From the NCBI GenBank assembly GCA_019662005.1, contig JAIFWG010000003.1, forward strand, positions 1 to 36,928: a stretch of 36,928 bases of DNA, read 5' to 3'. Made by a program: the position numbers and the translations under genes. The notes beneath the pieces are model-generated. The model was not told the origin of the DNA. It saw only the letters and a program-made list of their open reading frames with translations, and did no database searches. Each line of letters starts with the position of its first letter. The first letter of the stretch is position 1. This stretch comes from Candidatus Parcubacteria bacterium (GTDB lineage: Bacteria; Patescibacteriota; Minisyncoccia; 2-02-FULL-40-12; GWA2-44-9). This document shows positions 8,571-36,928 of this stretch, in pieces.

Positions 8571-8670
8571 GAATATATGAAAAAAAAGAAAAAATCCAAA
8601 AAAAAGTAATTTAATTTAAAACCCCGGCCTCATGAACCGGGGATAACCAACAAAGTAAGTCCTTAGCTAA

Positions 8671-8712: not shown

Positions 8713-8841
8713 TTGGCTGACCCGGCAGAAAACCGTGGAACCTTTTTCGGCACTGAAGAGCCGCAACTCTAAAAACTGTGCGAGCCTCAAACTCGTAAAA
8801 CTGTGAATTAGTGCCGGGGCAACTTGAGAGCCTTCAATCTC

Positions 8842-22297: not shown

Positions 22298-23108
22298 AAC
22301 ACCAAGTTTTCAGTCTGATCCAAATGTTGGATGGTCACAGGATGTTTTAAAAGATCAGAGCAATTACTTGATTAATGGACTTACATCCGACCAAGGATTA
22401 TCCGGACAACTCGGAGAAGCAACTTCAACGAATCCGATGATTACGCAGTTGACCTTACAGGCTTTGCAAAGTCAGCTTGCGCCAAGTTATAGAACAGGGC
22501 TTCAGAATATCACAAATACTTTGGAGGCGAATAATCAGTTGACAGGCTCTACAACAGCCTCGGCCTTGGGGAATTACGAAGGTGATTATCTTGCGCAGCT
22601 TACAGCGGCAGGAGCGAATGCTGGAATCGCGGATATTAATCGCGCTCTTCAGAACCGCGTTTCTCTTTATGGGGTGGGGCTTAATGCTGCGCAAGGCGTT
22701 GGCCAGACAGGTCTTAATAATCAAAGTCAGACGAATCAATTCGCGCTACAAAATTACGAAAACCAAGTTTCGGCTGCACTGATAAATCAACCCCAGCAAA
22801 GAGGAGGATTTATGGGGGCTTTAACTGGGGCTTTAGGTGGTGGGATTGGCGGTTTTGCGCTGGGCGGTCCCTACGGAGCTGCTGTTGGTGCGGGACTTGG
22901 AGGATTATCAGGAGGATTTGGGCAGTCGGGATCAGGGGGGCAGTTCCTCGGAGCCGGAGCATCTCTTTTTGGAAACAGGAATAGTGGGATTCCTGGAATT
23001 ACGAGCGGCGGAGGCGAGCAAATTTACAATCCGATTTATCAGCCTCTTAATTCATCGTCTAATCTTCTTGGCAATCTCAGCAATTATTATCCGTATGGAT
23101 TAAATTAG
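22266..23108 (+). CDS. internal-virion-like protein, Gln/Asn-rich with Gly-rich C-terminus
   Basis: AAGGAG RBS. The GGFMGALTGALGGGIGGFALGGPYGAAVGAGLGGLSGGFG segment and the position after the fibres support the call. Confidence 0.5.
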   Translation: MSKQTAPSLPETPSFQSDPNVGWSQDVLKDQSNYLINGLTSDQGLSGQLGEATSTNPMITQLTLQALQSQLAPSYRTGLQNITNTLEANNQLTGSTTASALGNYEGDYLAQLTAAGANAGIADINRALQNRVSLYGVGLNAAQGVGQTGLNNQSQTNQFALQNYENQVSAALINQPQQRGGFMGALTGALGGGIGGFALGGPYGAAVGAGLGGLSGGFGQSGSGGQFLGAGASLFGNRNSGIPGITSGGGEQIYNPIYQPLNSSSNLLGNLSNYYPYGLN

Positions 23109-23125
23109 GAGAATCTATGGGAGTT

Positions 23126-23707
23126 TTAATGGTTCCAATTTCTTCGCATACGATTAAAACAAGGTTTGCAAGGCCCGCAATAGAAAGGGGTTTTTATGGA
23201 TTTTTTATATATAGATATTGGAAAAGATTTTTTACATTGAGAACAAATCTTTTCTCCTGTTTTTTTAATATAATCAGCCACTTCGGAATGATGGCTCAGA
23301 TGATACTTTCTGGTTGTCAATTCAAGATTCTCAACTCTGTTGTCATTTTTAATTCCATTTTTATGATGGATTATTTCTCTCGGAGAAAGCCTTCTCCCGA
23401 TGTGTTTCTCCATGACCAGCCTATGCTCTCTGACGTAACCAATGGCATTTCTATCGGGATGAAATGGAGTATAAATAAGAACGTACCCATGATTAGAGCT
23501 AATTCCTTTTCTTATTCCTCTGTTGACCTTAGACATTTTACTTTTAAAGTAAAATCCAGATTTTCTCATTTTAATTTTTTGTTTAGAGAGATGGTATTGA
23601 ATTGCATTATTCGAAACATTAAGAATTTTGGATATTTCTGTAATAGGTTTTCCGCTCTCATAAAGTCTTATGATCAATTTTTTATCAAGGTTTTTGTGTA
23701 TTGACAT
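23126..23707 (-). CDS. HNH homing endonuclease with N-terminal HTH
   Basis: [51 protein letters not shown] is a classic HNH motif. The N-terminal [24 protein letters not shown] is an HTH. It lies opposite to the surrounding operon and is AT-rich. Trimmed to ATG 23707. Confidence 0.8.
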
Positions 23708-23721
23708 GGAGGAATTATAGT

Positions 23722-24615
23722 ATGGGATCAGTCTTAACGGAACTGCTAAATTATAAACAACAAAAGGACGCTCGATCAAATGCCGATTTGAACGCAATTC
23801 CTCAAGCGGCTTTAATGCTTCAGCGGGCGAAGCAACAGCAATATGACAATATGATTAAGGGGGCATTGACTCAGGCGACACTCGCCGGAAGCGGTATTTC
23901 TCTTAATCCTCAGACGAATAGTTTAAATGCTTATACGTCCCCTGCAAATCAGTTAAAGAATCTTCTGACTGTGAGTTCAATCAATAAGAATAACGCAACA
24001 GTAACGAATCTCCAGAATAAGCCTGCTCTAGATGCTGAAAAACAGCAAGTTAAACAGGATGCTCAGGATCAAAAGTCCTGGGAAAAGATTGTGAGGAACT
24101 CTGATCCATCTTTAGCCTCATCTCGCTCGACATTCGGGATGGCTTCAAACGGAAATCTCCGGGCAGACCGAGCTTTATCAACTTTACAAAATAACAAGAT
24201 TCTAACTAATCAAGATGCTCAGAACATCGTTGCTGATATCGCGGGCATTTATGCGGGCGGAGCGCCATCTGACCAGGGTATGAAACATTCTCAGTATGAA
24301 TCAATCCAACAGAGGATTGCGGGACTTCAACAATATATCAACGGAAAGCCTACAGATGCGCTTCCTCCGGACATTAAGAATCATCTAACTCAGGTGATTG
24401 GCGATCTGAAAAACGTAAATAATGAAGCAATTAAATCTCACTTTGATTATCAGGAAAAAGCAAACAGTGGAGTTATATCCAAGTATCAGGATGAATGGAA
24501 TCAGATGAAGGGGGCTTATGTTTCGGGGGATTCTTCGAATATTTCAGATGGAGCTACAGGCACTTACAATGGGAAACCAGTTGTAAGACAGGGGGGCAAA
24601 TGGGTTCTCAAATAA
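23722..24615 (+). CDS. internal-virion-like protein, Gln/Asn-rich
   Basis: Track ORF trimmed to ATG 23722, which has a GGAGG RBS. Confidence 0.5.
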
Positions 24616-26120
24616 TTCCGGATGATCAGGTTCAGCTTGATTCAATTCCCGATGATGCAGTTATTCCTGATAGCGCTGCGGCCATTGATCAGCCTCAATT
24701 TCAAGGAACTGGAAACCAGTTAGTCGATTCTTTCCTGATGGCTGGAAATGAAGCAAAGCGCGGATTTTTTAAAGGAGGAGCTGCTGCAGTTACTCCTCTT
24801 TCCATGCTTCTAAAACTAGGCCAGGTTCCGGATCAATTTAATCTTCCGGAGCAATCAAGACAACTCTATGACAAGTATGCCGGAGATGTTCCAGAATCAA
24901 ACATAAATCCTGTCGCAAAGTTTATTTATGAAGGAATTGGATCGACTCCCGGACAAGTTGCAGCATGGGAACAAACAGGCGCTCCATTGCTTAAAGCGGG
25001 CGGGGCTGCATTTGGGGCAGGGAAAAATCTCCTTGGGAAACTTATGGAGTCGAAAGCTGCTCCACTTGAAGCTCAAAAGGTTGCGCTCAATTCTCATCTG
25101 GAAACGACAAAAGTCCTTAACGATATTCAATCTACATCCATTGCCGCTGACATGAACGCTAATATGGCGGCTAAGAAGATAAGTACCGGAGAGCAGATTA
25201 AAGATATTTCCGGAAATATCAAAACAGCGGCTGATGAAGCGTCCAGAAATGCAAGAAGTTCAGTAATGAATTATTGGAACGAATTAAAGACTAATTTTGG
25301 GCGTGACTATGCTGCAGCAGGAAAGGGAGCGAAGATTACCCCATCTCAAGAATTAGATGCTTTGACTAGAGGCGCTGCTGATTCTGGAATTTACAGCAAG
25401 ATTGAGAGTGGAAGTCCTTTGAATCCGGCAGAGAAGAAGATCATGTCTTTAATCAATAATGCTCAAGATAGAGCTTCTTCTGAATTAAATGTTGCAAGGC
25501 CATTGTCTCATTTTGACCAGGAGATTAATTCCCTTGCAAGTGAACATGGTGGGGATCATACGGTTACCGCTGTTCGGAAGAGTGTTGCTGACATTCTTGA
25601 TGAATTTAAGGTTGTTAGGTCTAAATATAAACAACCTTATCAGTTAAAAAATGAGATGTTTAAGATATTTCAACCATTTAATAAATCTGGAAGTTTTGAT
25701 ACTACTTCTGGAACAAATCTTTTAAACAGAGCATTTAATGGAAAAGCTAGCCCTGATGAGATGCGCCTTGTTGAGGAATTGACTAAGCGTGATCCTGAAT
25801 TATTCTCACAATTAAAGTCACTTAAAACTACAAAAGATAGCTTGGTCTCAGGCCTTCAGCAGGCTCAAGAATCACACGCGAAAAACTTAACCAGTTTAAT
25901 GCAAGATTCTCAGAAGGCAACAATGGATGCGCTTGTGGAACATAAGAACAGTTCTGATTTACTGGATTCTTTGATTACGAAAGCCAAGGCGAGTGATGCG
26001 AAGAAAGTTTTGATTTCTGACTTACTTCTTCACGGAGCCAGGGGAGCGGCTACTACTGCGGGTGTGGGTGCTGTTTTTGGAGCCGGGAAATCTCTTTACG
26101 ATATTTTAAATAGGCATTAA
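24600..26120 (+). CDS. internal-virion-like protein with C-terminal hydrophobic segment
   Basis: Track ORF 24495..26120 trimmed to MGSQIIPDD. The C-terminus is GARGAATTAGVGAVFGAG. Confidence 0.5.
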   Translation: MGSQIIPDDQVQLDSIPDDAVIPDSAAAIDQPQFQGTGNQLVDSFLMAGNEAKRGFFKGGAAAVTPLSMLLKLGQVPDQFNLPEQSRQLYDKYAGDVPESNINPVAKFIYEGIGSTPGQVAAWEQTGAPLLKAGGAAFGAGKNLLGKLMESKAAPLEAQKVALNSHLETTKVLNDIQSTSIAADMNANMAAKKISTGEQIKDISGNIKTAADEASRNARSSVMNYWNELKTNFGRDYAAAGKGAKITPSQELDALTRGAADSGIYSKIESGSPLNPAEKKIMSLINNAQDRASSELNVARPLSHFDQEINSLASEHGGDHTVTAVRKSVADILDEFKVVRSKYKQPYQLKNEMFKIFQPFNKSGSFDTTSGTNLLNRAFNGKASPDEMRLVEELTKRDPELFSQLKSLKTTKDSLVSGLQQAQESHAKNLTSLMQDSQKATMDALVEHKNSSDLLDSLITKAKASDAKKVLISDLLLHGARGAATTAGVGAVFGAGKSLYDILNRH

Positions 26121-26189
26121 TAGCGCCATCAATAAACACATACATGCCTAAAGTTATGATTATGAGCCATGGGTTCATAGAAGGATTAT

Positions 26190-26354
26190 ATGCCTAAAGA
26201 AACTGTGTCTGTAAACAATTTCGATGAGATAAAGTTGGCACTTCGCCAGGAACTAGCAATTTTGTCTAAGAAATTCCAGTCTTCACTTTCAGCCGTAAAG
26301 ATCGATGAAGTCGCCAATTCTACGGATATTTTAAAGCTTGAGAAGATTGGCTGA
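26190..26354 (+). CDS. hypothetical small protein (54 aa)
   Basis: Hand translation is MPKETVSVNNFDEIKLALRQELAILSKKFQSSLSAVKIDEVANSTDILKLEKIG, with GAAGGA upstream. Below the track cut-off. Confidence 0.4.
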   Translation: MPKETVSVNNFDEIKLALRQELAILSKKFQSSLSAVKIDEVANSTDILKLEKIG

Positions 26355-26367
26355 GATTTTAAAAACA

Positions 26368-27096
26368 ATGACTCAGCTTTATGATTCTTTCGCAAAGAAT
26401 ATGGAGCTGAATCCCACAATTAATGTAGCCCAGCCAGAAATTAACATTCCAGAAATTAAAGTTCCGGATATTTATGTTCCCGAAATAATAATTCCGACCA
26501 TTAATGTACCAACTCCCCAAGTCACCGTCAACCCAGAAATCAATATTGACTTAAATAAAGTCATAGATGCTCTTGAAAATCTAAAATACCTATCAAACCT
26601 ACCAAATAAGCCACTCTCGGTTCGTATGTCTGATGGGAATAAGTTTGTGAAGGTTATCCAACAACTTCAGAAAGCAACTGACAATCTCGGCGTAGTTTAC
26701 GCTGGCCAAAGCGGAATCACTTCCGACGAACTTACTATTATCTCCGGAAGAGACGCGACTGATTTTATATGGAATGGGACAGCAAAATTAACTCCTAAAT
26801 TCGCCACAATTGCAGCGAGTTCTTCTGGAAACAATACTATCGTTTCAGCCGTAAGCACTAAAAAAATCAGAGTTATTCAGATGGATTTAATGGCCGATGG
26901 GGATGTTAATGTAAAGTTTCAAAGCGGAGCAGGTGGAACAGATATTACGGGACTTTCTTACCTGACTCTTAACACGGGTCTTGTGAGAGGCTATTCTCCT
27001 ATCGGATGGTTTGAAACTGCGGCCAGCAATCTTCTTAATTTAAATTTAAGTGACGCGGTCGCGGTAGGGGGTTCGCTTACCTACGTAGAGGTTTGA
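26368..27096 (+). CDS. structural-type protein with N-terminal PxIxV pentapeptide repeats
   Basis: Track ORF (TTG 26338, or ATG 26368). It contains PEINI PEIKV PDIYV PEIII PTINV PTPQV, followed by a beta-rich C-domain. Confidence 0.5.
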   Translation: MTQLYDSFAKNMELNPTINVAQPEINIPEIKVPDIYVPEIIIPTINVPTPQVTVNPEINIDLNKVIDALENLKYLSNLPNKPLSVRMSDGNKFVKVIQQLQKATDNLGVVYAGQSGITSDELTIISGRDATDFIWNGTAKLTPKFATIAASSSGNNTIVSAVSTKKIRVIQMDLMADGDVNVKFQSGAGGTDITGLSYLTLNTGLVRGYSPIGWFETAASNLLNLNLSDAVAVGGSLTYVEV

Positions 27097-28541
27097 TGTT
27101 AAGCGTAATCATTCCTTCCCGAAATGAAATATATCTAGAAAAAACTATCCGAAATATCCTTGAGAACGCCCAAGGAGATATTGAAGTCATCGCGGAACTG
27201 GATGGGTACGTTCCCGACCCTCAGATTATCATTGATGATCCTCGCGTAAAGTTTGTTCATCATCCCACCTCTATCGGGCAACGCGCCTGTATTAATCACG
27301 GGGTTTCGATTGCTTCTGGAAAATTCATCATGAAACTTGATGCTCATTGTGCGGTAGCTCTTAGATTTGATGTGGAGCTTGCAAAGAACTGTGAAGAGTC
27401 ATGGACGGTCGTTCCCCGAATGTACAACCTCGATATTCATACCTGGAAACCAAAACTTCACAAGCTCACCGATTATATGTATTTCACAAGTCCTAATGAT
27501 CCAGACAAACCATTTCGCGCAGCCTACTACGAAGGCCGAGAATACCGAAGACAACACAAAAACCCCGAAATAATTGATGACACCATGTGTTGTATGGGGC
27601 CGGGCTGGTTCATGCATAAAAAAAGGTTTTTAGAGCAGGGGGGTTGTGATGAGTTCCATGAAGGTGGCTGGGGTCAGCAAGGGATTGAAGTTTCGCTTAA
27701 AGCATGGCTTTCCGGCGGCGCTCTTAAAGTAAATAAAAATACTTGGTTCGCTCATTGGTTTCGAGGCGGTGGTGGGCCTGGGTTTCCTTATCACCTTTCA
27801 GGTAATCAGGTTGAGAGAGTCCGAGATTATAGCAAGGATCTTTGGCTGAATGACAAATGGCCGCTGGCAACTCGAAAATTGTCCTGGGTCATTGAGAAAT
27901 TCAGACCGCCTACCTGGGATGAATATGTCGAACCTAATGAAAACGAGAAAAAGAATTTATTCGTCAAATTTTACAGGCACATGATCAAACCTGGAAAGAA
28001 TGTTATTCGCTGGAGAGGTCATCGAGTTCTAAAACTGCCATCTGACCTTGCCTTATATCAACAAGCTATCTTTGAAAAAAAACCTGATTTTATTGTTGAG
28101 ACAGGAACTAAATGGGGAGGTTCTGCGATTTTCTTGGCGGATATGTGTGAGTTGAATGGGCATGGTCAGGTTATTACCGTTGATATTGCACCGCTTCACA
28201 AACCAGAGCATCCAAGGATTACTTACATCACAGGAAATTCAATAGATAAAGCAATCGTTGAACAGATTAAAGGAATCGTTGGAGATAAATCGGTCATGGT
28301 CATATTAGATTCTGACCATTCATTCCATCATGTGATGTGGGAACTTCATCGCTATAACAAGCTTGTGACGCTTGGACAGTATCTTGTCGTTGAAGATTGC
28401 CACAATAAATACGGAGAGCGTCATCATCCGATGGACGCAAGAGACTGGTTTTTAAAAAGAACCGGAAGATTCAAGTTAGAAGATTTCGCGAGTAAATATT
28501 TAGTGGGTCTTTCAATGGATGGGTGGTTGCTCAGAAAATGA
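27096..28541 (+). CDS. bifunctional GT27-like (ppGalNAc-transferase-type) glycosyltransferase / CmcI-type methyltransferase
   Basis: N-half motifs are SVIIPSRNE, KLDAHCAV (27333-27356), GGWGQQGIEVSLKAWLSGG (27663-27719) and TWFAHWFR (27741-27764). C-half motifs are KPDFIVETGTKWGGSAIFLADM and ILDSDHSFHHVMWELHRYNKLV...YLVVEDC. Confidence 0.65.
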   Translation: MLSVIIPSRNEIYLEKTIRNILENAQGDIEVIAELDGYVPDPQIIIDDPRVKFVHHPTSIGQRACINHGVSIASGKFIMKLDAHCAVALRFDVELAKNCEESWTVVPRMYNLDIHTWKPKLHKLTDYMYFTSPNDPDKPFRAAYYEGREYRRQHKNPEIIDDTMCCMGPGWFMHKKRFLEQGGCDEFHEGGWGQQGIEVSLKAWLSGGALKVNKNTWFAHWFRGGGGPGFPYHLSGNQVERVRDYSKDLWLNDKWPLATRKLSWVIEKFRPPTWDEYVEPNENEKKNLFVKFYRHMIKPGKNVIRWRGHRVLKLPSDLALYQQAIFEKKPDFIVETGTKWGGSAIFLADMCELNGHGQVITVDIAPLHKPEHPRITYITGNSIDKAIVEQIKGIVGDKSVMVILDSDHSFHHVMWELHRYNKLVTLGQYLVVEDCHNKYGERHHPMDARDWFLKRTGRFKLEDFASKYLVGLSMDGWLLRK

Positions 28542-29308
28542 AAGTCTCCATAATTATTTCAGTATTAGACAGCCACGAAGCTTTACGACGCCAGCTTCTT
28601 TACATGGAAAAAATGGGAATTCCAGATGATACCGAAATTGTCATCGTGGATGATGGAAGCAAAATCCCTCTCGAATATCACGGTAATCTTCCCGTCCGAA
28701 TTCTTCGTCTTGAATGGCCAGAACGAAAATGGACAGCTTCAATCGCGCGTAACAGGGGAGTTGAAATTGCGAATGGTGAGTATCTTTTAATGTTCGATCT
28801 TGATCATTTCATAAACAAAGAACTCCTTGATATGGTCAGGACATTCGGCGGGTATAAAGTCCAATTCATTAGGTCAATCGCTGTGATATTAGAAGATGGA
28901 AGTTTCTGTCAAGATCCTGAAGTGCTTTTCAAATGGGGATATCCCAAAAGCAGATATATGGTCAGAGGGTTTGGGATTACTCCCCATCCCAATATGTTTG
29001 CGATGCGTAAAGACATATTTTTAAAACTTGGCGGTTATGACGAATATAGAGTCTTGAATCGTCAATATCCCCAAGGCGAAGACAGCTATTTCAAAAAGGT
29101 TTGGCAATCGAAAGTAGATGAAGGCATTTATCATGTCCACACCGAACGCCCGACGATTTACACATTCCCGACTGGAAAAATGTGTGGGGATGTAGATTTC
29201 AATCCCTTTAATCTTTTCCACAATTCAAGCCGTGCCACTGATCGGAACAAATTCTACAAAAAACAAATCGAGAAATATGGACATAACCGGGATATACATT
29301 TCTCTTAA
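28538..29308 (+). CDS. glycosyltransferase family 2
   Basis: KVSIIISVLDSHEAL...EIVIVDDGS, with FDLDH as the DxD motif. The ATG at 28538 forms an ATGA overlap with the upstream stop. Confidence 0.65.
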   Translation: MKVSIIISVLDSHEALRRQLLYMEKMGIPDDTEIVIVDDGSKIPLEYHGNLPVRILRLEWPERKWTASIARNRGVEIANGEYLLMFDLDHFINKELLDMVRTFGGYKVQFIRSIAVILEDGSFCQDPEVLFKWGYPKSRYMVRGFGITPHPNMFAMRKDIFLKLGGYDEYRVLNRQYPQGEDSYFKKVWQSKVDEGIYHVHTERPTIYTFPTGKMCGDVDFNPFNLFHNSSRATDRNKFYKKQIEKYGHNRDIHFS

Positions 29309-29981
29309 TAAGCTACCTCAATATTGGGTTGATTATCACCTTGAAGTTCTTAAAGATGCTGCCCCGGGCATGCCCATTATTTCCATCACAAAAAAACCGA
29401 TGGATTTGGGAATGAATCTTTTGGATACCGATGAGCCTGGGTACACCAATATTTACAGGCAGTTATTAAGAGCGGCGAAATTAGCCACGACAAAATACGT
29501 TGCAATGATTGAGGATGACTGCCTTTATTCAAAAAGCCATTTTTTTAAATTCAGGCCACAAGATGATGAGTTTGCCTATAACCGAAACAGATGGTCTCTC
29601 TTTAGTTGGGGGGAGCCTATTTACTCGCTCAGACAAAGACTGAGTAACTGCTCTCTCATCGCTCCGCGTGATCTTTTAATAGAAGCTCTTCAAGAACGCT
29701 TTGATAAATACAACGGGCATCCTCCGGACAGTGAAATGGGTGAATGCGGAAGAGCCAGGATTGAAGACAGGCTGAAAGTTACTCGCCGTAAACAGGTCGA
29801 TTTTTTATCAAGAGTTTCAATTGTCCATATTAATCATCCTCTTGGAACTGAGGATAGACAACAACAACAGTGGAAATCTCATGCAGAGATCAGGGCTTAT
29901 GACATTCCTCATTGGGGGAAAGCTGCGGACATAGTCAATTTTTTTAATAATGGAATTAACCAAATGGAGGCTTTGAAATGA
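29277..29981 (+). CDS. putative glycosyltransferase-like protein
   Basis: VAMIEDDCLY is a DxD-like motif in a GT-A-like context. The start was chosen at ATG 29277. Functional support is weak. Confidence 0.3.
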   Translation: MDITGIYISLNKLPQYWVDYHLEVLKDAAPGMPIISITKKPMDLGMNLLDTDEPGYTNIYRQLLRAAKLATTKYVAMIEDDCLYSKSHFFKFRPQDDEFAYNRNRWSLFSWGEPIYSLRQRLSNCSLIAPRDLLIEALQERFDKYNGHPPDSEMGECGRARIEDRLKVTRRKQVDFLSRVSIVHINHPLGTEDRQQQQWKSHAEIRAYDIPHWGKAADIVNFFNNGINQMEALK

Positions 29982-30397
29982 GCGTAACTCGATGGGGGCC
30001 GGATACCTGCAAATGTCTATTTGATTTTGAGCCTGATCCCAATGATGGAACTAATCAAATTCTGATAGAAGTTCTGAATATTTGTTCAGAACATAAAGGG
30101 TTGTCTGGAAAGGATCTTCACCAGACAGTTTTAAAGCAAGAGAACCAGCATAAAAACAAAATACATTCAAAATTATTGGAACTCGATGCCATGGCTGAAG
30201 ACATAACTCAAGACGATGGCTCCGTGATAAGACGATTCAAGAAAGGGGTTGGATTTGATTTTAATTTCACAGGTAAAGACGATTCAAGGACTTTAAATAT
30301 AACGACTAAAGGGCATGTTTTATCAGGGGCTCAAAAGGCAGCATTGACTGATTTTTCTCTTCAAGAAACAGGGAAATCAATTTTAGAGATTAAATAA
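29978..30397 (+). CDS. CxC...CxxH protein, paralog A (139 aa)
   Basis: WGPDTCKCLFDF...ICSEHK. About 30% identical by eye to the next ORF, which has the same length. Confidence 0.6.
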   Translation: MSVTRWGPDTCKCLFDFEPDPNDGTNQILIEVLNICSEHKGLSGKDLHQTVLKQENQHKNKIHSKLLELDAMAEDITQDDGSVIRRFKKGVGFDFNFTGKDDSRTLNITTKGHVLSGAQKAALTDFSLQETGKSILEIK

Positions 30398-30413
30398 CTG
30401 GAAAGGGAATCTA

Positions 30414-30833
30414 ATGACTATACAAACGAATGCTTGGCACCCGGATACCTGCGGATGTGCTTTTGAATATACATGGGATGATCAGGATTTAGATCGCGTG
30501 CGGACTTTGAATAAAGTCATTCATGTGTGCGATCTCCATAAAATAATTTCTCTCACACCTTCAAGCCATTACTCGACAGTATCAGATGAAAACGTGAGAA
30601 AGAACAAACTTTATGGGAGATTTTTGGGAGTTTCTGATCTCACGCAAACGGATGCAAGCGGAAATGTTAATTTTAAAAACGGGGTAGATGTCTCATTCTC
30701 TTGGGACGGGACTGATTATGCCCGGATATTAAGCGCTTCTATCACTGGTTATAACCTGTCTGGGGCCAATAAAAATTCCGTACAAGATTGGTGTGACTCG
30801 ACCTTCGGGTTTGGGAAAGTAGCTATTAACTAA
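30414..30833 (+). CDS. CxC...CxxH protein, paralog B (139 aa)
   Basis: WHPDTCGCAFEY...VCDLHK. It shares EN..KNK, TQ.D.SG...FK.GV and LSGA.K with paralog A. Confidence 0.6.
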   Translation: MTIQTNAWHPDTCGCAFEYTWDDQDLDRVRTLNKVIHVCDLHKIISLTPSSHYSTVSDENVRKNKLYGRFLGVSDLTQTDASGNVNFKNGVDVSFSWDGTDYARILSASITGYNLSGANKNSVQDWCDSTFGFGKVAIN

Positions 30834-30835
30834 AA

Positions 30836-31015
30836 ATGGGCAATACGTTAATCCAAACTCAGACAGACAGCGCTCTTTCCACCAACCAAGTCTCAGACGG
30901 AACTACTTTTTACAATGCTTTAGGTGGTGCGATTAGAGGCAGCACAACCGAAACTTTCCGTCAATTTATAAACCGGACGGGAAGCGAAAGCTTCCATTTT
31001 TGTTTCCGCCAATGA
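30836..31015 (+). CDS. N-terminal fragment (59 aa) of the S/P/T-tailed late protein, separated by a frameshift
   Basis: MGNTLIQTQTDSALSTNQVSDGTTFYNALGGAIRGSTTETFRQFINRTG... matches the start of the domain repeated twice in 31176..32795. The reading frame of 31176..32795 is already open from 30972. Confidence 0.55.
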   Translation: MGNTLIQTQTDSALSTNQVSDGTTFYNALGGAIRGSTTETFRQFINRTGSESFHFCFRQ

Positions 31016-31175
31016 TGTCAGTAGTGCAAGCACTCTTAAATTCAGGAAAAATACGGCAGACGGCTCAACGGCTGCGAGCATTACTGGCAACACCACAGGC
31101 TTTTTTCAAGACGCGACCAACACAGATTCTGTCGTTGCCGGTGATCTTGTTGATTGGTCTATTACTGCGCCCGCT

Positions 31176-32795
31176 GTGGCCGGAAATCATTCAATCGAAT
31201 ATAAAAATATTTATGCCACATTTGCTGCTGGTACAAATTCATTCCAACGGCTCATAGGTTACACTGACGGAACAACCGGTACGCCGCCCCAAATAGTAAG
31301 CGCCGCGACTCGTTATTATAACGCTGGCGGAAATGTAAGTGCCCTTTCCGTGACGGAAGCTCCTGCCCAATTTAAATACAGAACAGCCGGGACGATTAAA
31401 AGTCTTTCCCAGATGGTCAGCGCAAACTCAGCCAGTTTCGCTACGACCGTAACTTTAAACATAAATGGTACGGGTGGCACTAATACGATTTCTGTAACGG
31501 CATCCACCACCGGTCTTTTTGAAGACACAACTCATTCCGATACGATTGCGGCAGGAGATCTCATTTCAATCGTTGGCGTCGGGGGCGTCGGAACTGGAAG
31601 TTCTACTATTCTTGGGGCTGCGCTTGAATTCGGGACTACGAATAGTAAGTTCCAAATGTATAGCTGGACTTCTCCAACAGCCCTTACTGCCGGTTCAACA
31701 TTCTACTATCCTTTATCCGGCGGTCTTATTGTCAATACGACAAACACAGAAAACGAATCCATTCAGCTTCGCGCTTCCTTCGTGATGACGGCTACAAATC
31801 TAGAATGTTATCTCACGGCCAATGCTTCTACAGGCGCCGGAACATTTGATTTTAGAAATGGTGCCGCAAGCACCGCTCTCACAATTTCTGTCACAGCTCT
31901 TACATCGGGTCTTTTTGAGGACACAACTCATTCTGCTTCAATCGCAATAGGGGACAAAATAAATTATAGGTATGTCGTAGGTTCCGGCGGAACTGGAACT
32001 TTAGATATGTTTGGCTGTATGCTGGCAGCTTCTGGCTCATCGCCTTCCAGCAGTCCGAGCTCAAGTCCTAGCAGTTCTCCAAGCCCGTCATCTTCGCCTT
32101 CGAGCAGTCCAAGTTCTTCACCGAGTCCATCTACAAGTCCATCAAGCAGTCCAAGTAGTTCACCCAGTTCGAGTCGTAGTTCGAGTCCTAGCTCATCACC
32201 CAGTCCATCGACTTCACCAAGTTCTTCGCCGAGCACATCACCAAGTAGTTCACCGAGCCCAAGTACGAGTCCATCGGCATCGCCGAGCACGAGTCCTTCA
32301 ACATCTCGGAGTGCATCACCTAGCACCAGTCCATCGAGCAGTCCAAGTCCATCGACAAGTCCGAGTTCAAGTGCGTCGACAAGTCCAAGCAGCAGTCCGT
32401 CACCATCGACTTCACCGTCTAGTTCTCCGTCAACTTCGCCTAGTAGCTCACCAAGCCCTAGTACGAGTCCGTCAAGTAGCCCAAGTAGCTCAAAATCAAC
32501 TTCGCCAAGTACGAGCGTTTCTTCGTCGCCCAGCAGTTCGCCATCAACTTCACCAAGTTCATCGCCGAGTCCGTCAACGAGTCCTAGTTCATCGCCTAGT
32601 TCGAGTCGTAGCGCAAGTCCATCAAGCAGTCCAAGCACGTCACCGTCAAGTTCTCCGAGCCCTTCGGCTTCACCATCAAGCAGTCCGAGTAGTTCACCAA
32701 GCAGTTCACCATCAGCAAGCCCTTCAGCATCACCGAGTTCATCTCCTTCTGCTGGAGCGTTTTTACCGAGACTAACATTGTTAGGAGCGGGATAA
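31176..32795 (+). CDS. late protein with tandem beta-type domains and a C-terminal Ser/Pro/Thr tract of about 240 residues
   Basis: Track ORF (GTG start, no RBS). Domain repeats are marked by YYNAGG/FYYPLSGG and TTGLFEDTTHSDTIAAGD/TSGLFEDTTHSASIAIGD. The real N-terminus is probably 30836, reached via a frameshift. Confidence 0.7.
   Translation: MAGNHSIEYKNIYATFAAGTNSFQRLIGYTDGTTGTPPQIVSAATRYYNAGGNVSALSVTEAPAQFKYRTAGTIKSLSQMVSANSASFATTVTLNINGTGGTNTISVTASTTGLFEDTTHSDTIAAGDLISIVGVGGVGTGSSTILGAALEFGTTNSKFQMYSWTSPTALTAGSTFYYPLSGGLIVNTTNTENESIQLRASFVMTATNLECYLTANASTGAGTFDFRNGAASTALTISVTALTSGLFEDTTHSASIAIGDKINYRYVVGSGGTGTLDMFGCMLAASGSSPSSSPSSSPSSSPSPSSSPSSSPSSSPSPSTSPSSSPSSSPSSSRSSSPSSSPSPSTSPSSSPSTSPSSSPSPSTSPSASPSTSPSTSRSASPSTSPSSSPSPSTSPSSSASTSPSSSPSPSTSPSSSPSTSPSSSPSPSTSPSSSPSSSKSTSPSTSVSSSPSSSPSTSPSSSPSPSTSPSSSPSSSRSASPSSSPSTSPSSSPSPSASPSSSPSSSPSSSPSASPSASPSSSPSAGAFLPRLTLLGAG
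32031..32750 (+). repeat. coding low-complexity tract, (S-P-S-S/T)n tetrapeptide periodicity
   Basis: About 240 codons that are almost exclusively Ser, Pro and Thr, with rare R/K/A/V. Ser is encoded with all six codons. Confidence 0.9.
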
Positions 32796-32798
32796 ATT

Positions 32799-33101
32799 AT
32801 GCCATTCACTGATGATCAATTTAAGGAATTTATCAAAGCAATGGATACCAGAGAAATGCTTATTCGCATTGATGAAAACACTAAGAATTTTCATCAATCA
32901 ATTGGTCGACGATTGGATGATCATATCAATGAAGACTTAAAAGAACTGGGTGTTCATACTCGCGACATTGAAAAATCTCATATCCGCATTGATGTCTTAG
33001 AAAAAGAACAAACAAAGCTCAGGGGAATCGTAATAGGTGTTGGAACGCTCGCAACCATAATTCTATCCATGCTCCAACTGTGGATAGCGTTCGTTAAATA
33101 A
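32799..33101 (+). CDS. lysis-associated membrane protein (XhlA-like topology: coiled coil plus C-terminal TM)
   Basis: The C-terminal IVIGVGTLATIILSMLQLWIAFV follows a charged helical N-region. It lies directly upstream of a holin-like ORF. Confidence 0.4.
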   Translation: MPFTDDQFKEFIKAMDTREMLIRIDENTKNFHQSIGRRLDDHINEDLKELGVHTRDIEKSHIRIDVLEKEQTKLRGIVIGVGTLATIILSMLQLWIAFVK

Positions 33102-33115
33102 TAGGAGGATTAAAA

Positions 33116-33319
33116 ATGAATCAATTTTTAAGCATTTTAAAGCTTGAACCGCTCAAAGGCAGTAGAACACAATTCACGATTTTGGCAGGGTTGGTAATTA
33201 ATATTTTGGTTCAGATTGGATTTATTCATTGGACGCCAGATCAAGTAAAGACGGTGAATGATTTTTTGACTTTAATTGCTGGCTATTTCCTAGCCGAAAA
33301 ACTCACGGTGTCAAAATGA
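33116..33319 (+). CDS. holin-like protein (two TM segments)
   Basis: A 67-aa ORF with TM segments FTILAGLVINILVQIGFI and FLTLIAGYFLA and a charged C-terminus. AGGAGG RBS. Confidence 0.5.
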   Translation: MNQFLSILKLEPLKGSRTQFTILAGLVINILVQIGFIHWTPDQVKTVNDFLTLIAGYFLAEKLTVSK

Positions 33320-33594
33320 AAAAAATATTGATTGGATTTATAGTCTTTGGAATGATTGGATGTGCGGCGGTTAAACAATCAAAAATTGATGCGACGGATT
33401 GCTTTAAAGACCCGGCTTGCAGAGAAGATGCGGTAGCAATAGCAGATAACGTTAAGGCTGAAGTGGTGGCTGTGGTCGGGGTTAGTCCATTGCCTCTTTC
33501 TACAAATGTTGTTGGGGGAATCGCCTACGGAGTAGCATTGATTCTAGCTTTAATTAAACTCGGCAAAAATAAACGCGAAGAAGTTCCTGCATAA
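33316..33594 (+). CDS. lipoprotein with C-terminal TM (unimolecular-spanin-like)
   Basis: Signal peptide plus lipobox MKKILIGFIVFGMIGC. The C-terminal TM is GGIAYGVALILALIKLG, followed by KNKREE. ATGA-coupled to the holin-like ORF. Confidence 0.45.
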   Translation: MKKILIGFIVFGMIGCAAVKQSKIDATDCFKDPACREDAVAIADNVKAEVVAVVGVSPLPLSTNVVGGIAYGVALILALIKLGKNKREEVPA

Positions 33595-33657
33595 AGGATC
33601 ATAGCAGATTGCATTCTCTCAAACGGTGGGGAAAGTAAAAATAGAGGATAAGCTTCT

Positions 33658-33843
33658 ATGGAAAAAGATAATCAGAAGGACTTTGTGGAGTACGATGAGG
33701 ACGCTTTCAAGCCTTACGTTTCTACTCTTCGCGAACTAACATCCGAGCCTGTTCGTTTTACAATTTATCAGCGGTATGCTCAGTTGCTTGATATTGGGGA
33801 TCGTCAATCCCGTCGCAGCAGCGCAGGAAGAACTTTTGATTAA
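33658..33843 (+). CDS. hypothetical protein (61 aa)
   Basis: Track ORF and the last gene of the plus-strand arm. Confidence 0.5.
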   Translation: MEKDNQKDFVEYDEDAFKPYVSTLRELTSEPVRFTIYQRYAQLLDIGDRQSRRSSAGRTFD

Positions 33844-33844
33844 T

Positions 33845-34420
33845 CTAGCTAGCGTTCTTTTCGTCCCTTTTATGGCGCTTTAGCGTCCAAATACGATTGT
33901 AGCAGCGGCTACATCTGCCGAAAGAATTGTGCTTGGTATCATTTTTTCCGCATAAAATACAATTGGTGTATTTTCTTGACCATCCTCTTTTCCCGAAGCT
34001 GGATCTTAGCGAGTTTTCCCATCTATCAATAAACCTACAATTATTAAATTCATAATGCCCACTGCTGTCAATTCTATCGATAGAAGGATTTTCTAATTTA
34101 TCGGCATTATCTCTAAACCACAAATCCTTAATTTGTTCTTTGGTTAGGAAACATTTTATTCCTTTAGCGCCATACCAACGATAAGCTGTATTGCTTTTTA
34201 CATGACACCTCCCCTGTATTCCTTTTAAAATTTTTTCCCAATGGGGAAGGGAATGGAATCTAGCATTCTTAATCTTCTTAATTCTTTCAAAATTTTTAAG
34301 ATAAAAATCCCTGTTTTTCTTTAAGCATATTTCTCGATTCTTTTCGTAATATTCTTTATTTTTCTGTTTAACTTTTTCTGGATTTTTTAACTTCCATTTT
34401 TCCAAACTTTCAGTAGACAT
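33845..34420 (-). CDS. putative HNH-family homing endonuclease with C-terminal zinc finger
   Basis: WYGAKGIKCF...PSIDRIDSSGHYEFNNCRFIDRWEN resembles the SIDRID...NCRW type of phage homing-endonuclease core. CILCGK...CSRCYN lies at the C-terminus. The gene is AT-rich and Lys-rich. Confidence 0.5.
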   Translation of the reverse strand: MSTESLEKWKLKNPEKVKQKNKEYYEKNREICLKKNRDFYLKNFERIKKIKNARFHSLPHWEKILKGIQGRCHVKSNTAYRWYGAKGIKCFLTKEQIKDLWFRDNADKLENPSIDRIDSSGHYEFNNCRFIDRWENSLRSSFGKRGWSRKYTNCILCGKNDTKHNSFGRCSRCYNRIWTLKRHKRDEKNAS

Positions 34421-34454
34421 TTTTAATTTTTGTTCCGTCTATGATTTTTTAAAG

Positions 34455-34536
34455 ATGCTGACTGGGAAACGCCTCTTCATTTGCCGTGAGTTAAGGTTAG
34501 TTTCGTTGCCCCTGTTTGCCGCAGGCCAGTCAGCAT
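34455..34536 (-). other. long-range hairpin (11-bp stem, 60-nt interior)
   Basis: ATGCTGACTGG 34455-34465 pairs with CCAGTCAGCAT 34526-34536. The interior holds CGGCAAA twice (minus-strand reading) and small sub-hairpins. It sits between a micro-ORF and the HNH gene. Confidence 0.35.
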
Positions 34537-34542
34537 GTAAAA

Positions 34543-34656
34543 TTATTTTTTCGAATAATAATCCCAAACAATTCCAACTATAAAGGCAATAAATACAATA
34601 AAACTAATAGCACCAATTTTTATGAAAGCGTCCCATGTTTCAAAACAATCAGTCAT
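34543..34656 (-). CDS. 37-aa single-TM micro-protein
   Basis: ATGA overlap with the stop of 34653..34895. Translation is MTDCFETWDAFIKIGAISFIVFIAFIVGIVWDYYSKK. Below the track cut-off. Confidence 0.45.
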   Translation of the reverse strand: MTDCFETWDAFIKIGAISFIVFIAFIVGIVWDYYSKK

Positions 34657-34895
34657 TTCTCCTCTTCCTCAAGACGCTGGAGTAGTGCAGAGCGGCAATC
34701 GTTGAAACCTTCCGAAAAAAAATTCATCGTATCTCCATGATATGCGCTTTCTTTGGATTCTTCAGGCACCCTCTCCCTGACCCAGGCGAAAAATATTTTT
34801 TTTAATTTAGATATTGGCATAAGACAGTAGGGGACAGTCTCATCACCTTTTAAATCTTTCTGAAAATGAGTTGTTAGTTTTTCATCCAGAGTCAT
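34653..34895 (-). CDS. hypothetical protein
   Basis: Track ORF 34653..34991 trimmed to MTLDEKL, because the longer start would overlap the upstream gene by 110 nt. The start is uncertain. Confidence 0.45.
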   Translation of the reverse strand: MTLDEKLTTHFQKDLKGDETVPYCLMPISKLKKIFFAWVRERVPEESKESAYHGDTMNFFSEGFNDCRSALLQRLEEEEK

Positions 34896-35316
34896 CCTGC
34901 ACATCCTTTCCCTCCGGCTCTTTGGGTAAAAGCTTGGTGCGTAATTCTCCCGCACAAAATGCCCAAACATTTCGTTTTTCAATTTCTCCATCAGAATCGT
35001 ATTCGTGCGCCCTGTCTAACATGTATTCCGTGACCTGATCCGCGACTTTCTTCCGCTCCGCGAGGACTGCCGCTTCTAATTCAATAATCTTTTTTTCTTG
35101 GGAATTGACCACTCCTTTTTTCCAAACCAAAAGTTCTTTTTTGAGAATTTCAATCTCTTCTTCCAGCGGCCTCCGGGCTTCGAGGGCGTGGGAGGTAAGG
35201 GCTGTTACAATCGCTTGCTTCGCATTCCGAATTCGTTCTTTCTTGGTTAGAATTGCATCATCAACTAAAAAGGTATCTACAATCTGTCTCGCTATCACTT
35301 CCTCATCGTCAGGCAT
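34882..35316 (-). CDS. hypothetical coiled-coil protein
   Basis: Track ORF trimmed to MPDDEEV (ATGCCTGA overlap with the upstream stop). It contains EEEIEILKKELLVWKK...IIELEAAVLAERKK. Confidence 0.5.
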   Translation of the reverse strand: MPDDEEVIARQIVDTFLVDDAILTKKERIRNAKQAIVTALTSHALEARRPLEEEIEILKKELLVWKKGVVNSQEKKIIELEAAVLAERKKVADQVTEYMLDRAHEYDSDGEIEKRNVWAFCAGELRTKLLPKEPEGKDVQDDSG

Positions 35317-35503
35317 GGTTAGACCTATATTTTTTCTCAATCCAGTAAAGGATTTTTCCTTTCTTGTGACAGAATCCGCAAATCTCATTTACCGGAAGCT
35401 TATAATCAAGAATCTTTGAAGTGTCTGGCTCCTCGGCAGGAGTAAGCCACCAGTGAAAACCGAAGAAGCATTTAATTCGTGTCCAAATCCTATCCTCAGG
35501 CAT
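35309..35503 (-). CDS. hypothetical Cys/Trp-rich small protein
   Basis: Track ORF containing C...CGFCHKKG. Confidence 0.5.
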   Translation of the reverse strand: MPEDRIWTRIKCFFGFHWWLTPAEEPDTSKILDYKLPVNEICGFCHKKGKILYWIEKKYRSNHA

Positions 35504-35714
35504 GGAGTTCCCTCATCTTTTGGAATACAGCAATGATGGTTTCCGTCATAATGGTTTCATTGAGTATAATTTGGTTTATCTGGAAAGAATGGAGCTGATA
35601 ACCGCGCCTCAGATTAACTTCAATCACTTGCTGGAACTTATCGCTTATCAGTGGATATTCGGGCTGTCCGGCAAGCCAATTTTTTGTGACTTCTGCAACT
35701 ATAAACTCGCTCAT
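35496..35714 (-). CDS. hypothetical protein
   Basis: Track ORF with overlapping start and stop in the chain. Confidence 0.5.
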   Translation of the reverse strand: MSEFIVAEVTKNWLAGQPEYPLISDKFQQVIEVNLRRGYQLHSFQINQIILNETIMTETIIAVFQKMRELHA

Positions 35715-36136
35715 CTTACTTTCCTCCGCTTTGGAAGGTTGGTCAATATTGATTTCATAAGAAACTGAATCATGTAGGCGTACAATTCGTCCGAATCTTC
35801 GGCAAGTCTGACGCCGCGCGCTCTTAATTCAAAGGAAACGGCATGGAAACATTCATGAGCAATTACGTCCGGCGAATGTTCCCGCGTCCAGATAAAGATA
35901 AGCGTTCCAGATTCTTGCGCGTAACAAGTCGTATGGCCTAGCGGTTCATGCTGCTTTTCCTCCGAAACGTCAATGTCGAAATGATGTTTTATAACCTGAC
36001 AATATCCGGCGTAGTTCGGCGCAATCACATAATAATAATTGCTTTGAAAAACTGGTTCCCAGATATGAATCAAAGAGCCGTAGCTTTTAACAACATACTG
36101 AGCCTTGACCCGCACCTTCCTTGTCCGCTCACTCAT
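35711..36136 (-). CDS. putative zinc metallopeptidase (HExxH)
   Basis: VIAHECFHAV contains HExxH. The start is taken at ATG 36136 (ATGAGTGA overlap with the upstream micro-ORF stop), but 36148 is also possible. Confidence 0.45.
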   Translation of the reverse strand: MSERTRKVRVKAQYVVKSYGSLIHIWEPVFQSNYYYVIAPNYAGYCQVIKHHFDIDVSEEKQHEPLGHTTCYAQESGTLIFIWTREHSPDVIAHECFHAVSFELRARGVRLAEDSDELYAYMIQFLMKSILTNLPKRRKVR

Positions 36137-36275
36137 CCCCATCACCATAAATTTTAACTTCCGTTAATTCATCTCTTATTCGATCAAGTTCTTTTTTTGA
36201 ATGAACGTCCGAGACATCCTCAATCAATTCTTCCAGGTCTAAAATTATTTTTTCTAAAGTGATTCGGGGGTTCAT
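36129..36275 (-). CDS. 48-aa acidic small protein
   Basis: AAGGAAAG RBS. Translation is MNPRITLEKIILDLEELIEDVSDVHSKKELDRIRDELTEVKIYGDGDE. Below the track cut-off. Confidence 0.45.
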   Translation of the reverse strand: MNPRITLEKIILDLEELIEDVSDVHSKKELDRIRDELTEVKIYGDGDE

Positions 36276-36297
36276 CGTTAAACTTTCCTTGTCCGCT

Positions 36298-36483
36298 TCA
36301 TCGGGCGGCTCTAAGAGCTTCTTTGACGGGGTCTTTTAAATACCAGTCCTCGATTGCTTCTATGTCCCGCATTTTATCCGAGCATATTCGCGGATCTGAG
36401 AGAAACTGCTCGGCGCAAGCGGTGCGATATAAAATTCGTAGAGCTTTCTTAACTAATCGATGTTCTAGTTCTTCTATTCTCAT
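36298..36483 (-). CDS. hypothetical protein (61 aa)
   Basis: Track ORF with a GGAAGGAAAGGG RBS region upstream. Confidence 0.55.
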   Translation of the reverse strand: MRIEELEHRLVKKALRILYRTACAEQFLSDPRICSDKMRDIEAIEDWYLKDPVKEALRAAR

Positions 36484-36515
36484 CTCATCCCTTTCCTTCC
36501 CGCTCAGTCGTTGTT

Positions 36516-36683
36516 TTATTTAAAGCGCATTACAGGTCTAAGCGTGACGTTTCCGCAGCCGCAAGTTTTGCAAAGGATATTAGGTGCATGAGCGGAAACC
36601 GTCATTCCTTTTTTAATTTCTTCCGTCCATGTTTCCCCACAATTTTGACAACTGGCTGTCATGTCATAGGTTGGTTCCTTCAT
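36516..36683 (-). CDS. 55-aa zinc-ribbon-like protein (duplicated gene, copy 1)
   Basis: AAGGAG RBS. Translation is MKEPTYDMTASCQNCGETWTEEIKKGMTVSAHAPNILCKTCGCGNVTLRPVMRFK (CxxC...CxxCxC). Below the track cut-off. Confidence 0.55.
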   Translation of the reverse strand: MKEPTYDMTASCQNCGETWTEEIKKGMTVSAHAPNILCKTCGCGNVTLRPVMRFK

Positions 36684-36822
36684 CCTCTTCCATCTCCTTT
36701 TTTATTAAAAGCATCCGCTTTTGAGGGGCGGTGCTGGCGGCGGGCCATTTCAACCCGCACGCTGTTTTAGCATACAACAAGGATTTCTTTCCCTTTCCTT
36801 CCCGCTCAGTCGTTAAGAGGTT

Positions 36823-36928
36823 TTATTTAAAGCGCATTACAGGTCTAAGCGTGACGTTTCCGCAGCCGCAAGTTTTGCAAAGGATATTAGGTGCATGAGC
36901 GGAAACCGTCATTCCTTTTTTAATTTCT
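36823..36928 (-). CDS. second copy of the zinc-ribbon-like gene, 5'-truncated by the window edge
   Basis: The 3' 106 nt are identical to copy 1 (offset 307 nt), with the stop at 36823-36825. Confidence 0.5.
   Translation of the reverse strand, partial: EIKKGMTVSAHAPNILCKTCGCGNVTLRPVMRFK

Follow-up and report, generated by a model that had tools for sequence, protein, structure and literature searches.

A long Ser/Pro tract and a GT27-like glycosyltransferase cassette in a phage genome: a candidate viral system of mucin-type O-glycosylation

Contig JAIFWG010000003.1 of the Candidatus Parcubacteria assembly GCA_019662005.1, 36,928 nucleotides long and here called the window, carries a phage genome in which two features are considered together. 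The first is a gene whose product contains, ahead of a short C-terminal tail, a tract made almost wholly of Ser, Pro and Thr, written (S-P-S-x)n below. The second, 2.3 kb upstream of this tract gene and on the same strand, is a three-gene glycosyltransferase cassette that begins with a domain resembling the polypeptide N-acetylgalactosaminyltransferases (ppGalNAc-Ts, family GT27) of mucin-type O-glycosylation. A preliminary description of the DNA, drawn from its letters alone, had read the tract as a mucin-like O-glycosylation or extended-linker region. The loci compared with the window are designated by L and a number, and coordinates given with such a number refer to that locus.

The tract and the gene that carries it

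The full tract gene extends over ~30836-32795 and comprises the following parts, to which the open reading frame (ORF) facing the tract is added:

30836-30994, plus strand: 5' end of the tract gene, comprising the start ATG and the opening ~50 codons of repeat 1, read in a frame that differs from that of the remainder
30984-31001, plus strand: zone of the +1 frame break, with GGG, AAA and T5 runs inside
30972-32027, plus strand: three tandem jelly-roll repeats of ~130 aa (motif xITASTTGLFEDTTHS...GD), C1q/TNF-like head
32028-32750, plus strand: (S-P-S-x)n tract, proposed O-glycosylation acceptor and stalk
32751-32795, plus strand: C-terminal tail AGAFLPRLTLLGAG and stop codon, a conserved peptide containing PRLTLLGAG, proposed to dock to the virion
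31964-32809, minus strand: open antisense ORF of 281 aa (LGELLG... type), spurious and produced by the composition of the tract

The tract forms the C-terminal part of ORF 31176..32795 (plus strand), which reads ...AASGSSPSSS...SSSPS before entering the tail, and is the sole S/P/T tract in the window. Its 241 residues comprise 152 Ser, 58 Pro, 17 Thr, 8 Ala, 3 Arg and one each of Lys, Val and Gly; Ser, Pro and Thr together account for 94% of the tract, and for ~29% of the 284 residues N-terminal to it in the same ORF (our own count from the translation and the codon table). The preliminary description had recognised about 240 such residues in a four-residue rhythm, which agrees with the present analysis, and had placed them at 32031-32750; the end stands and the start moves one codon upstream, to 32028. 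Successive Pro residues are 4 positions apart in 42 of 57 cases, 2 apart in 9 (SP dipeptide units) and 8 apart in 6 (Pro-less units). The higher-order unit was first taken for a 15-mer; autocorrelation gives instead a period of 18 aa (54 nt), with values of 0.74 at lags 4 and 18 for the peptide and 0.51 at lag 54 for the DNA.

As had also been noticed, TCN and AGY codons for Ser are mixed and the DNA is far less repetitive than the peptide. The two codon types are nearly balanced (79 AGY and 73 TCN) and intermixed at each position of the unit. The longest exact repeat is 22 nt in the DNA as against 31 aa, potentially 93 nt, in the peptide. Since shuffling of synonymous codons gives a longest DNA repeat of 16.6 +/- 2.4 nt, codon choice in the tract is near random. 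Tandem Repeats Finder returned short, weak arrays only. Together with the repeat statistics, this absence of long DNA repeats rules out a recent DNA-level tandem duplication as the origin of the tract.

The length of the tract varies between close relatives. The carrier proteins of L015 (13271-15454) and L016 (13260-15269) have their first 34 residues, the tract and the C-terminus in common; their central globular, LamG-like domain is swapped, and the nearly identical tracts differ by in-frame insertions or deletions of 4, 24 and 26 residues. The tracts of L018b and L020b differ by 28 residues. Blocks of 4-28 residues are thus still gained or lost among relatives, and the selection against recombinational collapse suggested in the preliminary description is not supported. 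The tract ORF of the related locus L026 is identical in six independent assemblies from different samples, for which reason an assembly artefact is an unlikely source of the tract. These six identical assemblies, the in-frame length changes and the maintenance of the frame up to the conserved C-terminal motif argue that the tract is real and translated. With near-random codon choice added, the same retention of frame and in-frame length changes bear out the earlier proposal that selection acts on the peptide and not on the DNA.

As the preliminary description had pointed out, the tract region can also be read without stops in two further frames: a second one on the plus strand (32011..32775, 254 aa) and the antisense frame listed above. 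Both are by-products of the composition. In several related loci (L026, L152, L203, L206), gene callers placed an antisense ORF over the tract region and missed all or part of the sense tract ORF. The automated calls are:

L026 12285-13037, minus strand: called antisense ORF
L152 12783-13388, minus strand: called antisense ORF
L203 13635-14786, minus strand: called antisense ORF
L206 15079-16095, minus strand: called antisense ORF

Such miscalls, by replacing the tract ORFs, are probably why the protein search returned no tract-bearing homologues, and through them tract-bearing proteins are largely missing from protein databases.

ORF 31176..32795 is not the complete gene. It covers only the second and third jelly-roll repeats; the first lies upstream, partly in a different frame. 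The 5' translation MGNTLIQTQ...RTGSESF corresponds to positions 2-51 of a hidden Markov model (HMM) of full-length homologues. The alignment in frame 2 stops at HMM position 51, where that in frame 0 begins and runs over positions 51-396. The main frame is stop-free from 30972, and region 30972-31176 has no start codon in frame 0. The break may stem from a nucleotide wrongly added during assembly, from a recent mutation or from programmed +1 frameshifting by the ribosome. It also raises the question of whether the feature is functional here at all, or would represent a pseudogene, an assembly artefact or a by-product of a real gene in another frame or strand. Beside the break, the two other open frames would fit this explanation, as would the composition of the 81 proteins retrieved with the head: none is a 100%-identical product of the contig, where the ORF thus seems uncalled. 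Against this, the two pieces abut exactly, both flanks are intact and homologous, and no further defect is seen. The Ser/Pro frame runs without interruption from a conserved domain before the tract to a conserved C-terminal motif after it. Comparable tract ORFs are present in numerous independent loci as well as in the six identical assemblies, and the antisense ORF is a known miscall devoid of homologous context. A non-functional feature is therefore very improbable in our view.

The 81 homologues of the head measure 400-430 aa and are built of the same three repeats; an S/P tract is found in none of them. Pfam assigned no family to the tract protein, and PHROGs gave a single weak match of unknown function. 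An AlphaFold2 model of 30972-32060, calculated from a 44-sequence alignment, shows three all-beta repeats with a predicted local distance difference test (pLDDT) value of 89. Among PDB entries, it is matched best by single-chain TNF/C1q trimers (APRIL-BAFF-BAFF, Cbln1 and single-chain adiponectin), with an E-value of 1.5e-5 and global TM-scores of only ~0.27; single head domains superpose on structures at 2-4 A. The best viral structural matches are collagen-repeat/C1q fibre proteins and minor tail proteins of actinophages. On the basis of this model, the head is a likely, if not proven, single-chain C1q/TNF-like pseudo-trimer.

The short hydrophobic tail noted after the tract in the preliminary description turns out to be a conserved motif. 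The C-terminus PRL[TP]LLG[AV]G also closes the proteins of L204 (13639-15087) and L206 (14936-16048) and a tract-less protein of L008 (11047-11397), which stand in otherwise unrelated contexts, with and without tracts. Tails of the hhhhG[VAC]G type are found in ~14 of the 81 tract-less head homologues. Because the tail is conserved and the homologues lack a tract, the tract in the window can be regarded as an insertion between the globular head and the C-terminal peptide. In L180 (1580-3946), a near-identical LPRLTVLGGA stands directly before the tract and not at the C-terminus. In other loci, tracts follow three-repeat heads, LamG-like domains or small N-terminal domains, or occupy internal positions. 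Since these carriers are mutually non-homologous and the 81 head homologues are tract-less, the tract appears to be a modular element.

Two paralogous genes directly precede the tract gene:

29978-30397, plus strand: 139-aa Cys/His-motif protein (WxPDTCxC...C..HK), no Pfam match
30414-30833, plus strand: paralogous 139-aa protein with the same motif, no Pfam match

A homologue of these proteins is encoded directly 5' of the three-repeat gene in L001-L004, L010, L011 and L013; the Cys/His-motif protein thus appears to be a conserved upstream partner of that gene.

The glycosyltransferase cassette

The cassette consists of three plus-strand genes, the first of which (27093-28541) is a fusion of two domains:

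27093-27950, plus strand: GT27-like (ppGalNAc-T-like) catalytic domain of GT-A fold, Pfam GT2
28005-28541, plus strand: rhamnosyl O-methyltransferase/CmcI-like domain, fused to the preceding one (Pfam PF04989, E=7e-41)
28523-29308, plus strand: second glycosyltransferase, generic GT2 by Pfam and by its PDB matches, proposed to act in glycan elongation
29277-29981, plus strand: third glycosyltransferase, of a new GT-A family (p29232-like), with an invariant EDD at 29511-29519

The likeness of the first domain to ppGalNAc-Ts extends over the whole catalytic domain. With the single sequence, a PDB search already puts these enzymes on top. With a profile built from 16 sequences of the domain, ppGalNAc-Ts (T1, T2, T4, T9, T10, T12) fill ranks 1-12 and all but one of the first 15, with E-values of 5e-14 to 2e-11 over profile positions 2-252; T7 is weaker (E 6e-9). 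Generic GT2 enzymes match the profile over its first ~100 residues only. The DxH motif of the domain, LDAHC (nt 27336-27350, residues 82-86), aligns with LDSHCE of GalNAc-T2. Further downstream, WGQQGIEVSLKAWLSGGALKVNKNTWFAHWFR (nt 27669-27764) aligns with the Gal/GalNAc-T motif WGGENxExSFRVWxCGGxLE...GHVFR, including the third metal-binding His. Seven residues, D83, H85, E199, G208, G209, W218 and H221, are invariant over the 16 homologues. By these similarities, the domain is predicted to transfer a sugar to Ser/Thr of a polypeptide. The family counts at least 994 protein clusters, all of them named only generically by their sources.

The assignment of the fused domain is supported by NCBIfam (rhamnosyl O-methyltransferase, E=5e-23) and by matches to CmcI structures. 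The third protein gave no match by sequence in Pfam, NCBIfam or the PDB. It has at least 192 homologues, none with a Pfam domain, and E79, D80 and D81 are invariant among them. Its AlphaFold2 model (pLDDT 95) matches GT-A folds, and it is by this predicted fold alone that the protein is assigned to GT-A. In other loci, the new GT-A protein adjoins the GT27-like domain or is fused to it; in L021 (6634-9135), L022 (9950-11425) and L023 (9989-11836), it takes the place of the methyltransferase as fusion partner. The L021 fusion has additional C-terminal domains after the new GT-A domain. In L026, a T7-like relative, the cassette contains an extra RmlD/epimerase-type gene (8552-9265), flanked by the GT27-like fusion and the GT2 gene; this gene hints at a deoxyhexose in the glycan. 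Because no transmembrane or hydrophobic segment is found in any of the three cassette enzymes, they are taken to be soluble.

The cassette shows 72% DNA identity to that of L014 over 2.87 kb, with unrelated flanks, and the second glycosyltransferase is 89% identical to its L014 counterpart. Cassettes are found in T7-like, lambda-like and SU10-like backbones, and thus appear to move as a unit. Direct transfer of the window's tract to or from L014 is ruled out, as the two tracts show just patchy matches of 60-105 nt at 69-80% identity. A tblastn search with the GT27-like domain and the new GT-A protein against 50,697 GenBank phage records yielded no match.

Co-occurrence of enzyme and tract

The association of the GT27-like enzyme with S-P-S-x tracts was studied in both directions. 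Starting from the enzyme, 12 IMG/VR loci were found with the fusion protein (49-78% identity), and S-P-S-x tracts are present in all 12. In 11 of them the tracts are 40-540 aa long and on the same strand; L019 has one only at a relaxed threshold. Further relatives (L026, L203, L204 and L206) carry tracts of 184-336 aa. As controls, 13 loci found through the head domain gave one weak tract and not a single GT27-like enzyme.

Starting from the tract, a composition-blind scan with a DNA pattern for (S/T-P-S/T-x)8 returned at least 120 viral contigs. An S-P-S-x locus was defined by six or more consecutive S-P-S-x units in which x is not Pro. Among the 120 tract loci listed, most of which have tracts of the T-P-T-x, TPTP or (SP)n type, the GT27-like enzyme occurs in four of the seven S-P-S-x loci versus one of the 113 others (Fisher p=2e-5), this last having an SPSATPSA tract. 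It was never found beside a T-P-T-x or (SP)n tract in this set. The supposition that such a length is unusual in a phage protein is not sustained, since viral contigs commonly contain long S/T/P tracts. Many of the loci L032-L151, for instance L040, L050, L097, L132 and L140, have T-P-T-x, TPTP or mixed S/T/P tracts of up to ~1266 residues, including some in giant-virus bins, and none of these has a GT27-like enzyme nearby.

The new GT-A protein served as a third entry point. Through it, 48 loci were found in metagenome-assembled genomes (MAGs), at 31-54% identity, and a GT27-like domain is adjacent in 46 of them.

These data bear on an alternative explanation of the tract, namely an unglycosylated, flexible Ser/Pro linker or spacer comparable to the PT/ST linkers of secreted enzymes, the nearby glycosyltransferases acting on host envelope glycans, on other virion proteins or on DNA. 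The abundance of long S/T/P tracts in viral contigs, most of them (T-P-T-x, (SP)n) without such an enzyme near, is in keeping with a plain linker. So are the ~27 of 48 MAG loci that have the enzyme pair and no tract within 10 kb, and the presence in the window of further sugar genes far from the tract. However, the enzyme is tied to the S-P-S-x type whichever way the search is run, and the tract carrier is always on the same strand and within a few kb of the enzyme in tract-bearing loci. Moreover, the lead enzyme resembles the protein-O-glycosylating GT27 family and not polysaccharide or DNA glycosyltransferases, and the cassette enzymes lack the membrane segments that lipid-carrier envelope-glycan synthesis would favour. 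An unglycosylated linker is therefore, in our opinion, unlikely.

A proposed glycosylated stalk and its relation to known systems

Taken together, the data suggest a system of mucin-type O-glycosylation that is encoded by the phage and works in the cytoplasm, in which the tract serves as acceptor domain and forms a glycosylated stalk on a virion fibre. We consider this rather probable; in other words, the phage probably sugar-coats its own fibre. The mucin-like O-glycosylation or extended-linker reading of the preliminary description is thereby partly supported; what comes in addition is the upstream GT27-like cassette, whose lead enzyme is associated with S-P-S-x tracts in particular in other phage loci.

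The following sequence of events can be proposed. In the infected cell, the GT27-like enzyme would add the first sugar to Ser/Thr residues of the tract. The GT2 enzyme, the new GT-A protein and possibly the products of a second sugar island (see below) would then lengthen the glycan, and the fused CmcI-like domain would O-methylate a sugar, probably a deoxyhexose. Densely glycosylated, the tract would become an extended, protease-resistant stalk of ~60-75 nm (241 residues at 0.25-0.31 nm each). This stalk would keep the variable head off the virion, to which the C-terminal peptide would dock. The virion-proximal position of the C-terminus is deduced from the tail shared by different carriers and from the swapped head in L015/L016.

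A glycosylated tract could also be arranged the other way round, the head being attached to the particle and the C-terminal tract hanging out as a free glycan brush that shields the particle or adheres to host or environmental surfaces. Tracts are indeed mostly C-terminal to a globular domain, and the L018b and L020b proteins end within the tract, with no tail. A precedent exists in mycobacteriophages, whose capsid and tail tube subunits bear C-terminal glycans that act as a shield, according to PMC12619734, which refers to Freeman 2023. The conservation of PRLTLLG[AV]G at the extreme C-terminus of different carriers and of tract-less proteins argues against such a brush. So does the pattern in L015/L016, where the N-terminal globular domain is swapped and tract and tail are conserved, as expected if the C-terminus is virion-proximal. 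We attach as little weight to the free brush as to the unglycosylated linker.

It should, however, be noted that several points weigh against the glycosylated stalk. The whole proposal is built on sequence and genomic context, and the role and orientation of the stalk on conservation patterns. The GT27-like domain shows low sequence identity to GT27 enzymes. The protein has a methyltransferase-like half in place of the ricin-type lectin domain of ppGalNAc-Ts, and it has no membrane anchor, its catalytic domain starting at residue 2 and its maximal 19-residue hydropathy being 1.18. In L205, the stretch examined contains no tract. Among the MAG loci, whose enzymes are more distant homologues, only ~21 of 48 have an S/P tract within 10 kb; the enzymes must therefore also have other, or distant, substrates, and a universal link between enzyme and tract is ruled out. 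The loci are phylogenetically related, and the co-occurrence counts do not represent independent events. Finally, because of the +1 frame break in the 5' part of the gene, expression of the window's own copy is not assured.

The wider window contains further genes related to sugars. Pfam matches define a second island between the capsid and adaptor genes, and sugar-related genes make up ~8 kb of the 36.9-kb genome, a heavy outlay that speaks for the proposed glycosylation:

11774-16994, plus strand: second sugar-related island
11774-12379, plus strand: GT2
13438-13983, plus strand: WbqC-like
13962-14426, plus strand: methyltransferase
14851-15858, plus strand: protein kinase/APH-like
15855-16994, plus strand: GT4-like

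The SU10-type capsid protein (308 aa) has no S/P/T tract and finds its nearest counterparts, at 34% identity or less, in phages that infect freshwater and marine Proteobacteria. No tRNA gene is present in the window, and a megablast search of window positions 20000-36928 against GenBank phages gave no match. Three small membrane proteins are encoded 3' of the tract gene (32799-33594). The third (33316-33594) combines an N-terminal lipoprotein signal with a C-terminal membrane segment, as in a unimolecular spanin. An SLT transglycosylase gene is found at 1303-1923 on the minus strand. The spanin-like lipoprotein, the membrane proteins and the transglycosylase suggest a diderm host. A Cys-rich ORF of 191 aa with no Pfam match (33845-34420, minus strand) separates the lysis genes from those at the right end; judging by its motifs, it possibly encodes an HNH-like or zinc-binding nuclease.

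The genome matches of the cassette (L155-L202) bear on the host. Thirty of the 48 are in MAGs of Patescibacteria, or candidate phyla radiation (CPR) bacteria, among them a Saccharibacteria contig of 568 kb (L152/L156) that has an integrase close by. A further 13 come from Gammaproteobacteria, Pseudomonadales or Aquaspirillum bins, nearly all with unusually low GC (0.35-0.45). For the window, a CPR host is countered by the spanin-like gene and by a capsid protein nearest to those of Proteobacteria phages.

Several known systems resemble the one proposed here. In eukaryotes, ppGalNAc-Ts are type II membrane proteins of the secretory pathway, which transfer GalNAc from UDP-GalNAc to Ser/Thr with retention of configuration. 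The window enzyme shares with them the GT-A fold and the DxH and Gal/GalNAc-T motifs over the whole domain. The tract resembles mucins in its length, its richness in Ser/Thr/Pro, its tandem periodicity and the differences in length that it shows from one relative to another. In contrast, the enzyme lacks both the lectin domain and the membrane anchor of eukaryotic GT27; its fusion partner is a CmcI-like methyltransferase, replaced at other loci by a second GT-A domain. The phage system would also differ in being cytoplasmic and phage-encoded, with a Ser-dominated S-P-S-x repeat and an enzyme of low identity.

The serine-rich repeat glycoproteins (SRRPs; Fap1, GspB) of Gram-positive bacteria are comparable in another way. 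They too have very long Ser-rich repeats, glycosylated in the cytoplasm by the products of adjoining genes, and the resulting fibril serves as a stalk on which a binding domain is displayed. One of the PDB matches of the GT27-like domain is GalT1, from the Fap1 pathway. However, SRRP repeats are SxSx dipeptides, modification is initiated by GtfA/GtfB and the product is a cell-wall adhesin anchored through LPXTG, as opposed to S-P-S-x repeats, a GT27-like enzyme and a presumed virion component ending in PRLTLLGAG. Families of the accessory export type (SecA2/SecY2) did not turn up among the ~40 window ORFs scanned with Pfam, a scan not aimed at them. By analogy, the window system would thus work like mucin-type O-glycosylation and like the SRRPs while being a member of neither family.

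With the collagen-stalk/C1q-head fibres of phages and giant viruses, the tract protein shares a C1q/TNF-like jelly-roll head and an elongated stalk. With all three jelly rolls on a single polypeptide, however, it cannot build a collagen helix of three chains, and its stalk would instead be a single-chain Ser/Pro tract C-terminal to the head. The PT or Ser-Pro linkers of secreted enzymes and phage proteins are likewise low-complexity S/T/P segments between or after domains and are widespread in viral contigs; the tract in the window is much longer, has regular periods of 4 and 18 and is tied to an enzyme cassette.

The likeness to the glycosylation of mycobacteriophage virions, which Freeman and colleagues reportedly described in 2023 for Che8, Corndog and Myrna, is one of concept only. 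There too, phage glycosyltransferases are encoded among structural genes, and in both cases they would act on C-terminal parts of virion proteins. The carriers in that case are capsid or tail tube subunits with short extensions, whereas the window carrier is a fibre-like protein with a 241-aa tract. The enzymes also differ, because those of the window have no match in the GenBank phage records searched. To our knowledge, phage-encoded virion glycosylation has so far been shown only for these few mycobacteriophages. A literature search on phage GT27, phage mucin-like O-glycosylation and Ser/Pro tracts found no description of a system like the one proposed.

The locus points to a different and widespread system of virion glycosylation, annotated only generically so far, with a defined candidate enzyme-substrate pair in which a GT27-like initiator stands beside a dedicated mucin-like acceptor tract. 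A groundwater virome study interpreted the LamG/concanavalin proteins and glycosyltransferases of CPR/DPANN viruses as auxiliary genes for host adhesion (PMC11310336). Such genes may instead be virion fibre and self-glycosylation modules. The replacement of tract ORFs by antisense ORFs during gene calling constitutes an annotation blind spot for proteins of this kind.

More generally, it can be proposed that GT27-like soluble polypeptide glycosyltransferases form a large, unannotated family in uncultivated phages and prophages, many of them in Patescibacteria/CPR MAGs. In a mobile cassette with members of the new GT-A family, and paired with an (S-P-S-x)n acceptor that is itself portable, they would then make up a self-contained viral mucin-type O-glycosylation, building glycosylated stalks under interchangeable receptor-binding heads. 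For this broader proposal, we judge the arguments to be evenly balanced. If it is true, the machinery of mucin-type O-glycosylation would have a relative in prokaryotes or viruses, and the enzymes of this relative would be the closest prokaryotic or viral counterpart of those that initiate mucin glycosylation in eukaryotes. The system could also serve as a compact toolkit with which mucin-like glycoproteins might be made in bacteria.

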